Positions 40,683-50,475 of a stretch of DNA of 64,000 nt are shown here, piece after piece. A program made the translations under genes and the position numbers. Source of the DNA: an uncultured Sphingomonadales bacterium (GTDB lineage Bacteria > Pseudomonadota > Alphaproteobacteria > Sphingomonadales > CAKZYD01); NCBI GenBank assembly GCA_964590595.1, contig CAZPXQ010000003.1, forward strand, positions 71,357 to 135,356. Reading direction: 5' to 3'. Each line of letters begins with the position of its first letter. Positions within the stretch are counted from its first letter, which is position 1. The notes under the pieces are model-generated. The model did not search any database and was not told the DNA's origin. It saw only the letters and a program-made list of their open reading frames with translations.

Positions 40683-41840
40683 TTAAGACGCCTTCGGCAT
40701 CTGCCGTTCCTTGCAAATCTCGACAAAGGGGCGCCGCAATCCCGCCGCTTCCAAACGCGGAAAGACATCGCGAGTCATGCGGGCAACGCCTTCCAATGGG
40801 TCGGGCCAGTTGATCAGCACGCCGTCGACCCCGCAGCTAGCCAGCGATTTCAAGACATCGGCCACGGTGTCGGCATCGCCAGCGATGGGATAACCGCCGC
40901 CGGCGCCGACAATCTTGCTCATCACCTCAAATTGCGGAGTACCTTTTTTCACGCCGCTTTCATCGCTCAAGGTGCCAAGGAATTGGTCCATCGCTTCATT
41001 GTCGCGGAATTCCTGTGTGTAGTGGCGGTGGAAGTCCTTGGCCTCGGCGACGGTATCGCGCTGAATGACGGTGATATTGGAAAAAATTTGCAAATGGCGA
41101 TTGAAATGTTTGCGTGCATAACCGCGATAGTCATCGACTTGCGCTTTCCATTTTTCGGGCTCATTGCCAAGCAGGGAAATGAAGGCGATGTCGGCATGTT
41201 CGGCGGCAAAGGCGCGGCCGGCGGGCGACAGCCCCGCATTCATGATCGGAATCCGGGCCTGGACCGGCTGCGGCCGGCACAAGGCGCCGTGAATCTTGAA
41301 ATATTTGCCATCATGGTTGACTTCATCCGGCGATTCCCACAACGCGCGGACAACCGTCAGCCATTCCGCCAGATATTGATAGCGTTCGTCATGCTCCAGC
41401 AAGTCGATGTCAAACATCGCGAATTCGCGCCGATTCCAACCACCGACGATATTCATGGCAAAGCGGCCGCCCGACAACCGGTCGATGGACGCCGCCTGTT
41501 TGGCGATCAAAACCGGGTGCGCGGTGGGCGCGTTAAGGGTGGTGAACAAGGTGCTGTAACTGGTGACTTGTGTTAACGCGCCGGCCAAAATGAACGGGTC
41601 CATGACATAATTCAGCGGATGATCGGGCTGATTGTCCAAATAGCCTTTCCAGCGGGCAATCGGCACCAAGCCCTCAAAGCCAGCGGCATCAGCCATGCGG
41701 GCGACGCCCAGAATCTGTTCGATCGATGGAATTGGGATGTGTGGCGATATGGTTGGAATGGCGAAATTATTGATGCAGAACGCCGCGATCTTCAACTTGT
41801 TGTCATTGTAAAGCGCATTCGGCTTTTGACGGACTTCCAT
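40683..41840 (-). CDS. Luciferase-like (LLM) flavin-dependent monooxygenase, RutA/SfnG-like
   Basis: [64 protein letters not shown] before ATG 41840. Confidence 0.88.
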
Positions 41841-41868
41841 GTCGCCTCCTGTCCTGATGGTTTGGACT

Positions 41869-43008
41869 TTAAATCGCTGTCGCCAGCATATCGCGCGAGA
41901 CATCGTCCACCGACCGGACCCCGGAAAAGGCCAGGCTGAGGTCGATTTCGGTGCGAATGATGTCAAGCGCGGTTGAAACGCCGGCTTCGCCATCGGCGGC
42001 CAAGCCAAACAAATGCGCCCGGCCCAACAAGCATCCCTTAGCACCCAACGCCATGGCCTTGAGCACGTCCTGGCCGCTGCGCACGCCGCCATCCAGCAGC
42101 ACTTCGCCACGGCCATTCGCGGCTTCGACCACGCCCGGCAGGGCAGCGATGGTGGACTGGCCCTGGTCGAGGCAATTGCCCCCATGATTGGACACGCTCA
42201 CCGCATCGACGCCGGCATCGAAGGCGGCGCGGGTGTCGTCGGGATGCATGACGCCCTTCAAGATCAGCTTGCCTGGCCAGATTTCGCGCAGCCAGGCGAT
42301 ATAGGACCAGTCGACTTCATCTTCCAACAAGCCGAGAATCGTGCCCAGATCGGCGGTTTGCATGATTGGCTCAAAATTCCCCAATTTGATTGGCCCACCC
42401 AGCAAAGACGCGAGGGTCCAGCGTGGCGTGCGCGCTAATTCCAACAGCGACGACAAGGTCAGTTTTGGCGGCAGCGACGTGGTTCTATTGCGAATGAAAC
42501 GATTGGTGCGGCTGGCGGTGGGCCAGGTGACGGTCACGATGAGTACGGGGCAGCGATGATGCTGGGCGCGATCGACTAATGCTTGGACGACGCCACGGTC
42601 TTTGAGCGGACATAGCTGGAACCATAGTTTTTCGGTGCTGCCCAAAGCAGCCGCCACCTCATCCAGCGAAGCGATCGACATCATGCCCAGCGTAAAAGGA
42701 ATGCCGGCTTTCTGCGCTGCCCGAGCGGCGAGGATCTCAGCCTTGCTGCCGCGCAAGATGCCACTCATGCCGGTGGCGGAGATGGCGACGGGCATGGAAC
42801 AGTCTTGGCCAACCAATTGGGTCGCCAATTTACGGTTGGCGATATTGCGCGCCACCCGCTGCTGGAAGCGAAACTTAGCGAAATCATCGCAATTGGCGCG
42901 CAATGTTGCTTCCTCAAAGCCGGCGCCGTCGATGAAGTCGAAGACCGGCTTGGGCAGCTTGTGCTGCGCTTGCTTCCTCAGATCGGCAATGCTGGCGGCG
43001 GGTTGCAT
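41869..43008 (-). CDS. FMN-dependent oxidase of the alpha-hydroxy-acid oxidase fold, non-canonical active site
   Basis: LILKGV, SNHGG, DGGVRSG, GR FMN motifs; substrate-binding residues altered. Confidence 0.88.
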   Translation of the reverse strand: MQPAASIADLRKQAQHKLPKPVFDFIDGAGFEEATLRANCDDFAKFRFQQRVARNIANRKLATQLVGQDCSMPVAISATGMSGILRGSKAEILAARAAQKAGIPFTLGMMSIASLDEVAAALGSTEKLWFQLCPLKDRGVVQALVDRAQHHRCPVLIVTVTWPTASRTNRFIRNRTTSLPPKLTLSSLLELARTPRWTLASLLGGPIKLGNFEPIMQTADLGTILGLLEDEVDWSYIAWLREIWPGKLILKGVMHPDDTRAAFDAGVDAVSVSNHGGNCLDQGQSTIAALPGVVEAANGRGEVLLDGGVRSGQDVLKAMALGAKGCLLGRAHLFGLAADGEAGVSTALDIIRTEIDLSLAFSGVRSVDDVSRDMLATAI

Positions 43009-48407: not shown

Positions 48408-48510
48408 ACGCCGGCCGGCGTTTATTGCATAAATGCTAAAACGAAATAGGGCACGAAAGCAGCGTGAGCCAAGCGCCAGGCAGTGTTGCGTCAAATTGAG
48501 GAGAACAAGA

Positions 48511-50475
48511 ATGTCATTGCGCCATGTGCTCAGCCCCATTGCCATCGGCCCGGTCGAGCTGGCCAATCGCGTGGTGCGTACCGGCCATGGGACCGGCATT
48601 GGCGGCGGAACCATGAACGATGCCTTGATCGACTATCATGTCGCAAGAGCCCGCGGCGGTGTTGGCTTGACGATTCTGGAACTACTGTCGGTCCATCACT
48701 CGGCCTATCCGTTTTTTGTCGCTGGCGCGCCGGGATTGGTCGAAGGCTATGGCAAGCTGATGGAGCAGGTGCGTCCGCTGGGCATGCGGGTGTTCCAACA
48801 GATTGGCCATTTGGGCAATGAAATTCCGCAAGCTGATGGTGGCCCGCCGATTTCATCCTCCGACACCGCCGGCGCCATGGTCGGTGTGCCTTCGGAGCCG
48901 ATGACCAAGGCGCAAATCGCGGAGATGATCGACTGCTATATCGCCGCCGCCAAGCAATGCATCGCCGGCGGCCTGGATGGCATTGAATTGCACATGGCGC
49001 ATGGCTATTTGGTGCAGCAGTTTTTGTCACCGCTATATAATTTCCGGGACGATGAATATGGCGGCGATTTTGAAAACCGTGCGCGGCTGGCGCTGGAATT
49101 GTTGCGTGCCGTGCGCGGCGTGTTGCCGTCCTCTATGGCGCTGGGCGTGCGCCTGAGCAGCGAAGCTCTGCCCGGCGGCATGAACAGCGACGATGTCGCC
49201 CGGCTGGCTAATCTGTTTCATAGCGAAGGGTTGATCGATTATGTCAACCTGACCTTGGGCACCGATTATAATCCGCACAAGATCATTGGCGCCATGCATG
49301 AACCGGTGGGTTATGAGATCCCCTATGGGGCGCCGGTGAAGGCGGCAGTGAAATTGCCGGTGCTGGTCACTGGGCGATTCCGCACGCTGGAGGAAGCCGA
49401 TCAAGTGATTGGCGGTGGCGATGCCGATTTGGTGGCTTTGACGCGCGCGCATATCGCCGGCCCTGACATCGTGCGCAAAACCATTGCCGGACGGGAAGAG
49501 GAAATTCGTCCCTGCATTGGCTGCAATCATGGTTGCATTGGCGGTTTGCTGTCGGCCGGCCGCATTGGGTGCACCGTGAATGTCGCCGTCGGCCAGGAAG
49601 CGACTTTAGCGGAAGATTTGATCGCGCCCAGCGCGCAGCCCAAGACCGTGTTGGTGGTGGGCGGCGGTCCAGCTGGATTGGAGGCAGCAAGGGTCGCGGC
49701 CTTGAAGGGGCACCGGGTGATCCTGGCGGAAGCCGCGCATGAGCTGGGCGGTGCCATTAATATCGCCAAGCGCGCACCACGGCGCCTCGGCATTGCCGAC
49801 ATCACCGACTGGCTGGAGCGTGAAATTTTCCGCCTTGGCGTGGAAGTGCGCCTCAGCACATATGTCGAGGCTGAAGATGTCACAGCGATTGCGCCTGATG
49901 TGGTCATTGTCGCCACTGGCTCGCTACCGCGCATGGACGGTAAGCAGTTCTTGTCTCCCGGCCAAGTCGCCGATGGCATGGAACGGCGTCACGTCGTTTC
50001 CAGCCATGATTTGCTGCTTGAGCACAGCAACCGCGACTGGGGGCAGCGCGCTTTGGTTTATGACGATGCCGGCCATTATGAGGGGGTCGCCGCCGCCGAG
50101 TTCTTGATTGAGAAGGGCCTGGCCGTCACCTATGCCACCGGCCACAGCCGGTTCGCGCCGGGGCTTGAGGCCAGTTTGTCGGCGGAACCGGCGCTTGAGC
50201 GGCTGGCGAAGGGCGATTTTCGGCTCATCACCTATGCGCGGCTGGCGGCGGTTGAAGACGGCGCCGCGCGCATCGATTTCCGCTATGGCGGCAGCCCGGT
50301 CGAGGTGGCGGCGGACACAGTGGTGTTTGTGTCCCACAATAGCAGCAATCGCGAGCTGGCCGACACATTGGCGGATTGGCCGGGCGCGGTGCATTTGGTG
50401 GGCGATGCCCGCAGCCCGCGCTATTTGCAAACCGCGATTCGCGAGGGTCATTTGGCGGCCCGGCAGATCGATTAG
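48511..50475 (+). CDS. FadH/OYE-type NADH:flavin oxidoreductase with 4Fe-4S cluster and FAD domain
   Basis: RARGGVGL, ELHMAHGYL..QFLSP..NFRDDEYGG, CIGCNHGC-x-C, GGGPAGLEAA; GAGGAG SD. Confidence 0.92.
   Translation: MSLRHVLSPIAIGPVELANRVVRTGHGTGIGGGTMNDALIDYHVARARGGVGLTILELLSVHHSAYPFFVAGAPGLVEGYGKLMEQVRPLGMRVFQQIGHLGNEIPQADGGPPISSSDTAGAMVGVPSEPMTKAQIAEMIDCYIAAAKQCIAGGLDGIELHMAHGYLVQQFLSPLYNFRDDEYGGDFENRARLALELLRAVRGVLPSSMALGVRLSSEALPGGMNSDDVARLANLFHSEGLIDYVNLTLGTDYNPHKIIGAMHEPVGYEIPYGAPVKAAVKLPVLVTGRFRTLEEADQVIGGGDADLVALTRAHIAGPDIVRKTIAGREEEIRPCIGCNHGCIGGLLSAGRIGCTVNVAVGQEATLAEDLIAPSAQPKTVLVVGGGPAGLEAARVAALKGHRVILAEAAHELGGAINIAKRAPRRLGIADITDWLEREIFRLGVEVRLSTYVEAEDVTAIAPDVVIVATGSLPRMDGKQFLSPGQVADGMERRHVVSSHDLLLEHSNRDWGQRALVYDDAGHYEGVAAAEFLIEKGLAVTYATGHSRFAPGLEASLSAEPALERLAKGDFRLITYARLAAVEDGAARIDFRYGGSPVEVAADTVVFVSHNSSNRELADTLADWPGAVHLVGDARSPRYLQTAIREGHLAARQID

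Follow-up and report, generated by a model that had tools for sequence, protein, structure and literature searches.

A putative TonB-fed oxidative gene cluster in the place of a DUF3089 gene next to ruvX in an uncultured Sphingomonadales bacterium

We analyzed a 64,000-nt stretch of contig CAZPXQ010000003.1 from an uncultured Sphingomonadales bacterium (hereafter the window, to which all coordinates refer), and found that six genes lying next to ruvX, which an original prediction made from this DNA had described as an uptake-and-oxidation cluster, occupy the position held in related genomes by a single gene for a DUF3089 protein. All six were confirmed at the predicted place by the open reading frame (ORF) listing and by Pfam and NCBIfam profile searches of the window proteins (Table 1). 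A leftward run codes for a cytochrome P450, a TonB-dependent outer-membrane receptor (TBDR), an atypical member of the flavin mononucleotide (FMN)-dependent alpha-hydroxy-acid oxidase/dehydrogenase family (FMN_dh), as well as a luciferase-like monooxygenase (LLM), and a divergent rightward pair codes for an AraC-family regulator and an Fe-S flavoenzyme of the old yellow enzyme (OYE) superfamily. The chances are, in our estimate, about even that these genes form a laterally acquired mosaic catabolic locus, AraC-controlled and TonB-fed, for a neutral hydrophobic substrate, while any particular named class of substrate is unlikely at best. Judged by sequence, two enzymes of the cluster represent rare, uncharacterized subfamilies, and the active site of FMN_dh is clearly and unusually remodeled.

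The history of the locus was approached through synteny, by locating pyrB and gatA in five same-family genomes, retrieving the stretches and mapping the flanking proteins. The order pyrC-pyrB-ruvX-DUF3089-GNAT is present in all five, with genes overlapping or abutting, and gatC-gatA follow directly after the GNAT acetyltransferase gene in four, the fifth running into a contig end. The RuvX proteins of these relatives are 67-72% identical to that of the window, and GNAT homologues stand at the same position in every one of them. The distance between pyrB and gatA is 2.6-4.1 kb in the five relatives versus 13.2 kb in the window genome, in which the DUF3089 gene (372 aa) is missing and the six genes stand in its position; no DUF3089 homologue or remnant was found anywhere in the assembly. 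Because all five same-family genomes hold DUF3089 where the six genes sit, the sequences support an acquisition or, more exactly, a replacement of DUF3089 by the six genes. The search of related genomes for an empty locus, suggested with the original prediction, uncovered an occupied one, and the proposed insertion between ruvX and gatC holds on the ruvX side but not on the gatC side, where the GNAT gene and then a DUF4153 gene intervene.

The claim of acquisition therefore stands on synteny and not on composition. The GC content at third codon positions (GC3) of the six genes, 0.62-0.73, lies inside the genome range (mean 0.709, sd 0.06), so that base composition was discarded as a sign of foreign origin and the argument from composition is a weak one. 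As to sequence relatives, we compared the proteins with genome sets that are samples and not whole groups: LLM had one 44% match at E ≤ 1e-90 in 400 other Alphaproteobacteria and none at that threshold in 300 other Sphingomonadales, and the closest P450 among 40 sampled relatives was 43% identical.

The domain, tRNA and repeat scans bore out the earlier statement that the cluster has no integrase or flanking repeat: the 13 ORFs scanned from 37825 to 54796 gave no integrase or transposase domain, the window yielded no tRNA, and flanking repeats were not found at the cluster ends. Both ends are tight, the left one leaving about 95 bp and the right one having its stop codon overlap that of the GNAT gene by 4 bp. 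We rejected an integrase-borne genomic island, as there is no integrase or transposase, no tRNA target, no flanking direct repeats, nor room for them at the ends. An exact 17-nt direct repeat, CGCGCCGCATCAAGCAA, is present at 40391-40407, inside ruvX, and again at 47172-47188, in the intergenic region between the divergent genes (within-window BLAST E 0.002), and extends no further in either direction; chance or microhomology from recombination may account for it.

The genome is a metagenome-assembled genome (MAG) of 2.23 Mb, 74% complete, from a microbial mat sample, and the names carried by homologues put it among the Sphingomonadales. Short contigs from three sludge-metagenome runs, belonging to a different study, tile the cluster, most of the listed pieces with 0-10 mismatches, and bridge every gene junction as well as both outer junctions (e.g., 40565-41093 and 50028-51083). 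Because contigs of this second study bridge the junctions, the arrangement is real and not an assembly artefact of the MAG, and it is present beyond the source sample.

The FMN oxidase had been called atypical, and inspection of its residues agrees with that description. FMN_dh matches PF01070 over profile positions 1-349 of 350, with 369.5 bits against a cut-off of 24.9. In the PF01070 family, two arginines and Tyr24 hold the substrate carboxylate, and Tyr129, Asp157, Arg164 and Arg257 have roles in carboxylate binding and transition-state stabilization. Alignment to spinach glycolate oxidase and mandelate dehydrogenase (spinach numbering, checked against chain coordinates) shows that the catalytic base His254 and the flavin-N1 partner Lys230 are kept, as His275 and Lys251, while Tyr24 is replaced by Phe, Tyr129 by Cys133, Asp157 by Thr161, Arg164 by Thr168 and Arg257 by Asn278. 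FMN_dh is therefore similar to glycolate oxidase, (S)-mandelate dehydrogenase and L-lactate dehydrogenase LldD in its full-length family match and in Lys230 and His254, but differs from them at Tyr129, Asp157, Arg164 and Arg257, all of which are replaced. Its pattern F-C-T-T-K-H-N is common to its three close relatives; the usual pattern is (Y/F)-Y-D-R-K-H-R. In a 1.84-billion-protein library, just two of the 150 best representatives have the variant, and at least 126 carry D-R-K-H-R.

Because the carboxylate-holding residues have been lost while the catalytic pair has been kept, FMN_dh would be expected to act beside a neutral group. We consider it a family member by fold and not a predicted hydroxy-acid oxidase, and its residues predict a fold re-tooled for a non-acid substrate, with dehydrogenation next to a neutral activating group. 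Assignment as LldD or as the pre-mycofactocin synthase MftD was rejected, with scores under the curated NCBIfam cut-offs (NF008398, 317 vs 376; NF033901, 279 vs 550; TIGR03966, 254.5 vs 470.85). No MftD member at cut-off was found among the 71 representatives scanned of the 150, a tandem fusion scoring 468.3 vs 470.85.

LLM is, by its sequence, in the clade of SsuD, SfnG, RutA and LadA, which are its closest solved structures (80-103 bits, SfnG being the best with 103 and RutA reaching 97), and few of its homologues exceed 60% identity. It falls below every NCBIfam cut-off (SfnG, 141.3 vs 382.95; RutA, 118.9 vs 498.3; SsuD, 104.6 vs 518.2), and with scores this far under the curated values we rejected it as an equivalog of RutA, SfnG or SsuD; the RutA-like role that had been ascribed to it is not supported. 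The P450 has an intact haem-thiolate motif, F-x-x-G-x-H-x-C-x-G, at residues 350-359, and an intact I-helix acid-alcohol pair (GGNETT at 246). It is rare: in a 5.8-billion-protein collection the identity of its closest match is 75% (one cluster), falling to 55% and 53% for the next ones, its best solved structures, with about 184 bits, are TamI, a CYP125 ancestor and PikC, and a scan of genome contigs yielded only four distant Acidobacteriaceae loci (39%).

The Fe-S OYE combines in one chain an OYE TIM barrel (PF00724), a 4Fe-4S motif and a C-terminal NAD(P)/FAD Rossmann domain (PF07992; GGGPAG at residue 384). Its cluster cysteines are arranged as Cys335-x2-Cys338-x3-Cys342-x11-Cys354, with the C-x2-C-x3-C spacing found in dienoyl-coenzyme A (CoA) and naphthoyl-CoA reductases, and the His/His/Tyr ene-reductase motif is present as HMAHGYL at residue 161. 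In the alignment, Gly27 stands opposite Cys35 of histamine dehydrogenase (3k30); in amine dehydrogenases this cysteine forms 6-S-cysteinyl-FMN. The cysteine spacing, the His-x-x-His-Gly-Tyr motif and the glycine at the site of the FMN-linking cysteine argue for an ene-reductase type as opposed to an amine dehydrogenase, and the trimethylamine/histamine dehydrogenase type, with its FMN-linking Cys and C-x2-C-x2-C spacing, was rejected. So were the mycofactocin-system OYE 2 (503 vs 793), BaiCD (361 vs 825) and bilirubin reductase (299 vs 750). The three-domain architecture and the C-x2-C-x3-C-x11-C arrangement are shared with FadH, 2-naphthoyl-CoA reductase (NCR) and clostridial enoate reductases, although identity to the solved FadH-type members is low, with 215 bits at best, to NCR. 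The His-x-x-His-Gly-Tyr motif marks classical OYEs; E. coli FadH and NCR lack it at the aligned place, whereas the window protein has it. Orthologues at 65-78% identity are numerous, and one 94% relative was found in a MAG.

We sought other loci in which these families occur together. P450, TBDR, FMN_dh and LLM recur together in two, one of them a paralogous cluster within this genome, on contig C2, and the other a metagenome locus, L062. The C2 cluster codes for an LLM (73%), an atypical FMN_dh (65%), a P450 (41%) and a TBDR, along with a Rieske oxygenase, short-chain dehydrogenases/reductases (SDRs), an alcohol dehydrogenase, an enoyl-CoA hydratase, an amidohydrolase_2 protein, a SnoaL-like protein, a glyoxalase-fold protein and a LuxR regulator, and the region begins with genes for a rhodanese, a Cys/Met pyridoxal-phosphate (PLP) enzyme and two further LLMs. 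L062 (positions 5700-21200), on a 678-kb metagenome contig, is its gene-for-gene orthologue, in which identities are 65-66% for LLM, 66-78% for FMN_dh, 44-60% for P450 and 68% for TBDR. In addition, a locus on contig C5 of the same genome unites a TBDR and an atypical FMN_dh (56%) with an OYE that has the architecture of the window enzyme (30%), and the metagenome locus L038 has P450, TBDR and LLM in the order of the window.

Looking outward from single members gave a more dispersed picture. Orthologues of the OYE (67-71%) occur in three of the 300 other Sphingomonadales, in three different contexts and with the other five genes absent within 10 kb on either side; one of them (genome G015) shares its operon with genes for a family III CoA-transferase, two SDRs, a MaoC protein, an acyl-CoA ligase and a TBDR. 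TBDR orthologues (49-56%) were found in seven of the 300. Ten of the 13 TBDR loci matching at E ≤ 1e-110 were examined, the three at 42% being left out, and homologues of AraC, LLM, FMN_dh and OYE were found in none of the ten and a P450 (41%) in one; the neighbors were Rieske oxygenases, pyrroloquinoline quinone (PQQ) dehydrogenases, acyl-CoA dehydrogenases, SDRs and SnoaL proteins, and in six of the ten the adjoining Rieske oxygenase is 43-49% identical to the Rieske protein of C2. The 77 metagenome loci with 35-52% relatives of the P450 have a TBDR nearby in 10 cases, an FMN_dh in two and an LLM in one. Overall, P450, TBDR, FMN_dh and LLM make up the best-supported functional set and the OYE is its least certain companion, and the sequences suggest that the window cluster is a small mosaic whose parts come from a network of interrelated oxidative loci fed through TonB. 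The original prediction of one pathway for one compound was not supported, as homologues of all six are together at none of the other loci examined and only four families recur, at two loci; its remark that the combination is not a described pathway agrees with the literature, in which we found no description of this gene combination, the only precedents being the edc and pdc clusters considered below.

The two genes that would govern uptake and regulation resemble no named type. The TBDR passes only the generic plug and barrel models, named receptor families scoring at best 94.7 vs 316.85 and 92 vs 223.5, and a siderophore, haem or B12 receptor was rejected, all NCBIfam cut-offs being missed. 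For AraC the best NCBIfam match is FeaR, a regulator of aromatic-amine catabolism, which was likewise rejected, with 124.6 bits under a curated cut-off of 199; AraC has a single paralogue (33%), located on contig C1 next to the best-matching paralogue of the TBDR. The shared, AT-richer intergenic region of about 560 bp that had been noted between the divergent genes was confirmed by measurement. It contains a perfect palindrome, AAAACAC-N3-GTGTTTT, at 47401-47417, 19 bp before the AraC start codon. GTGTTTT recurs at 46927-46933, upstream of the P450 start by 50 bp, and together these elements are a candidate operator for the divergent promoters. Consensus promoters (4 vs 5.4 expected from shuffled sequence) and consensus terminators (10 vs 12.4) were not above chance, and no Rfam match at E ≤ 0.1 was found in 40000-51500. 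The hairpin and TTTATT that follow AraC, missed by the consensus terminator scan, may be a terminator between AraC and the OYE gene.

From gene content and context we infer a scheme of regulation and an order of steps. Inducer-bound AraC would probably activate the divergent operon P450 > TBDR > FMN_dh > LLM, and the TBDR would import a poorly diffusing, uncharged and probably hydrophobic compound, for which alicyclic, terpenoid, steroid-like and aromatic molecules are candidates. The P450, served by a ferredoxin and a reductase encoded elsewhere, may hydroxylate a C-H bond; FMN_dh may then oxidize the new or an adjacent hydroxyl (or an amine) beside a neutral activating group, such as a ketone; and LLM, with FMNH2 from the single flavin reductase of the genome, may insert oxygen, either in a Baeyer-Villiger-type opening of a ring or chain or as a hydroxylation. 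The Fe-S OYE would reduce an activated C=C bond in the same or a neighboring route. A bolder version, which we regard as doubtful, has FMN_dh and LLM as a two-enzyme module not described before, in which oxidation of a neutral hydroxy- or amino-ketone is followed by oxygenative C-C cleavage by LLM, so that with P450 and a dedicated TBDR it would give bacteria of sludge and mats a new way to open alicyclic or terpenoid-like compounds.

Several observations weigh against the proposed catabolic locus. The six genes were found together in none of the three OYE-orthologue, 10 TBDR-orthologue and 77 P450-relative loci, and AraC and OYE homologues are present in none of those 77. The cluster has no CoA ligase, ring-cleavage enzyme, other downstream genes or redox partners, and could therefore encode at best a partial route. 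The class of substrate is deduced from context and residue loss, with no positive specificity signal; the nearest characterized relatives of LLM (SfnG, RutA, SsuD and LadA) cleave C-S or C-N bonds or hydroxylate alkanes, and camphor-type Baeyer-Villiger LLMs are absent at E ≤ 1e-10 from its solved-structure matches. Finally, the genome is a MAG that is only 74% complete. Part of this evidence would fit an arrangement in which the six genes are not one pathway and AraC with TBDR, P450, LLM with FMN_dh and a stand-alone OYE were acquired separately, the OYE at least serving an unrelated route, an account that we find possible but rather unlikely. The three contexts of the OYE orthologues, none with the other five genes, and the hairpin and TTTATT between AraC and OYE speak for such a juxtaposition, as do the differing distributions, the OYE being common, the TBDR confined to seven of 300 genomes and relatives of LLM and P450 rare. 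On the other hand, the genes are packed tightly on a single replaced segment, both ends of which abut host genes, the four-family set recurs in C2 and L062, and the C5 locus likewise joins the OYE type (30%) with a TBDR and an atypical FMN_dh (56%).

Two further alternatives retain a single pathway and change its chemistry. Scavenging of organosulfur, in which an SsuD/SfnG-like LLM would release sulfite from an imported sulfonate or sulfone, draws on the best solved relative of LLM being the dimethylsulfone monooxygenase SfnG (103 bits), on the match to SsuD, on the JGI label "dimethylsulfone monooxygenase" carried by LLM homologues (~50%), which is an automatic one, and on the rhodanese, Cys/Met PLP enzyme and two more LLM genes that open the C2 region. 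We nevertheless hold it to be very unlikely: LLM scores 141 vs 383 for SfnG and 105 vs 518 for SsuD, the locus has no SsuE, ABC transporter or sulfite-handling gene, and, to our knowledge, the known scavenging of sulfonate sulfur has no part for a P450, an ene-reductase or an FMN dehydrogenase. An imported alkaloid, lactam or other N-heterocycle, attacked by C=N reduction or amine oxidation and by RutA-like C-N cleavage, was the substrate favored in the original prediction and is the least probable of those considered here. RutA is among the nearer solved relatives of LLM (97 bits), the FMN_dh family includes MftD, which acts beside a lactam carbonyl and whose model gives 254.5 bits, and the OYE superfamily includes amine dehydrogenases; against this, the OYE has ene-reductase motifs, with the dienoyl-CoA reductase cluster spacing and no FMN-linking Cys, the scores fall short (RutA, 119 vs 498; MftD, 254.5 vs 471; mycofactocin OYE, 503 vs 793), the cluster has no amidase, deaminase or other nitrogen-handling gene, and the neighbors of orthologues are CoA-dependent or oxygenase genes.

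Comparison of the catabolic locus proposed here with known systems shows that its order of chemistry has a parallel in the camphor (CAM) pathway, in which P450cam and an alcohol dehydrogenase are followed by an LLM-type diketocamphane monooxygenase: C-H hydroxylation and ketone formation precede oxygen insertion by a two-component LLM that needs a separate flavin reductase. The camphor alcohol dehydrogenase is NAD-dependent, whereas our scheme uses a protein of the FMN_dh family instead; the window LLM is not close to the diketocamphane enzymes, none of which was matched at E ≤ 1e-10, and the window adds a TonB receptor and an Fe-S ene-reductase.

Closer in taxonomy is the edc estrogen cluster of Caenibius (Novosphingobium) tardaugens, described as having divergent operons in which the P450 EdcA carries out the first hydroxylation and the TBDR EdcT aids uptake of a neutral hydrophobic substrate, with ferredoxin and reductase encoded elsewhere (PMC7793797). 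The window locus shares with it the order Sphingomonadales, the divergent operons, the P450 and TBDR and the distant redox partners, a likeness at the level of description (PMC7793797). In the outline given there, edc is larger, with a ring-cleavage dioxygenase, CoA-dependent genes and a TetR regulator, and has no LLM, FMN_dh or Fe-S OYE (PMC7793797). In the C. tardaugens pdc cluster, the LLM EGO55_13860 is reported to carry out Baeyer-Villiger oxidation of progesterone (PMC12239570). As outlined in that source, it is, like the window protein, a sphingomonad LLM with no adjoining flavin reductase, its substrate being a neutral ketone, while pdc, unlike the window locus, is a four-gene cluster with a type I Baeyer-Villiger monooxygenase and TetR/LuxR regulators (PMC12239570). 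Any relationship between the two LLMs is distant, because no LLM within E ≤ 1e-90 was found in the 300 sampled Sphingomonadales.

As a kind of locus, the sphingomonad oxygenase cluster with a linked TonB receptor and AraC control is known, while the particular set of genes in the window was not found elsewhere. Such clusters let sphingomonads and their relatives import and attack hydrophobic pollutants, hormones and plant-derived compounds. The substrates of most such clusters are still to be found, and the window cluster, being small, is testable. The substrate of FMN_dh, once found, would provide a new reaction for a well-studied family and a functional handle on the larger clusters of the C2 type.

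Within the leftward run, the gaps between P450, TBDR, FMN_dh and LLM are 74, 101 and 28 bp. Start sites were corrected for three of the six genes. The start of LLM was placed at the Met at 41840, as the longer 500-aa ORF overlaps FMN_dh, the Pfam match begins only at its residue 153 and the homologue length fits; the 654 aa of the OYE correspond to the length of its homologues, and a GAGGAG ribosome site precedes its ATG. The cluster contains no ferredoxin, ferredoxin reductase or flavin reductase genes; the genome has one Flavin_Reduct gene, on contig C1, and 2Fe-2S ferredoxin genes adjoin other P450s.

Table 1. The six-gene locus and its flanks (coordinates and strands within the 64,000-nt window)
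Feature	Position	Strand	Evidence and remarks
LLM: luciferase-like (group C) FMNH2-dependent monooxygenase, 385 aa	40683-41840	-	PF00296, 6.1e-51; last gene of the leftward operon
FMN_dh: atypical FMN-dependent alpha-hydroxy-acid oxidase/dehydrogenase family member, 379 aa	41869-43008	-	PF01070, 2.1e-110
TBDR: TonB-dependent outer-membrane receptor, 816 aa, signal peptide	43110-45560	-	Plug and barrel domains (Pfam)
Cytochrome P450, 413 aa	45635-46876	-	PF00067; first gene of the leftward operon
Divergent intergenic region, presumed promoter/operator, 559 bp, GC 0.52	46877-47435		Base composition
AraC-family regulator, 323 aa	47436-48407	+	AraC_binding_2 and HTH_18 (Pfam)
GC-rich palindrome followed by TTTATT, directly 3' of the AraC stop; possible terminator	48406-48425	+	Weak
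Fe-S OYE: FadH/enoate-reductase-type flavoenzyme, 654 aa	48511-50475	+	PF00724 and PF07992; 4Fe-4S motif
ruvX, left flank, host backbone	40117-40587	-	PF03652, TIGR00250 above cut-off; start put at GTG
GNAT acetyltransferase, right flank, host backbone	50472-51050	-	Pfam; stop overlaps OYE stop by 4 bp
DUF4153 membrane-protein gene, between GNAT and gatC	51074-52933	+	Pfam

The DUF4153 gene has no homologue at the same place in the five relatives, in which GNAT is separated from gatC by about 110-150 bp, and represents a second, separate difference at this locus. Elsewhere in the genome, the C2 cluster covers approximately 85-106 kb of its contig (L015, L016) with about 15 genes, and is followed by a phage-type integrase gene and a phage capsid gene. 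Its Rieske protein was rejected as KshA-like, the nearest solved relatives being carnitine and glycine-betaine monooxygenases. At least four separate adjacent P450-TBDR pairs are present in the 2.2-Mb genome, at C1:672-686 kb (L019), at C1:80-90 kb (L020), on C2 and in the window, and each of the three atypical FMN_dh genes lies near a TBDR gene, adjacent to it in the window and at a distance of 1.4-2.7 kb on C2 and C5. This appears to be an organism specialized in TonB-fed oxidative catabolism. Contigs C10, C13, C14 and C15 (5-31 kb) have a GC content of 0.29-0.42, compared with 0.60-0.63 in the large contigs, and are probably of foreign or mobile-element origin, having entered the MAG in binning. 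The FMN_dh paralogue on C5 (L017:13322-14842) extends about 120 residues past the family domain, which could be either a C-terminal extension or an unrecognized fused ORF.

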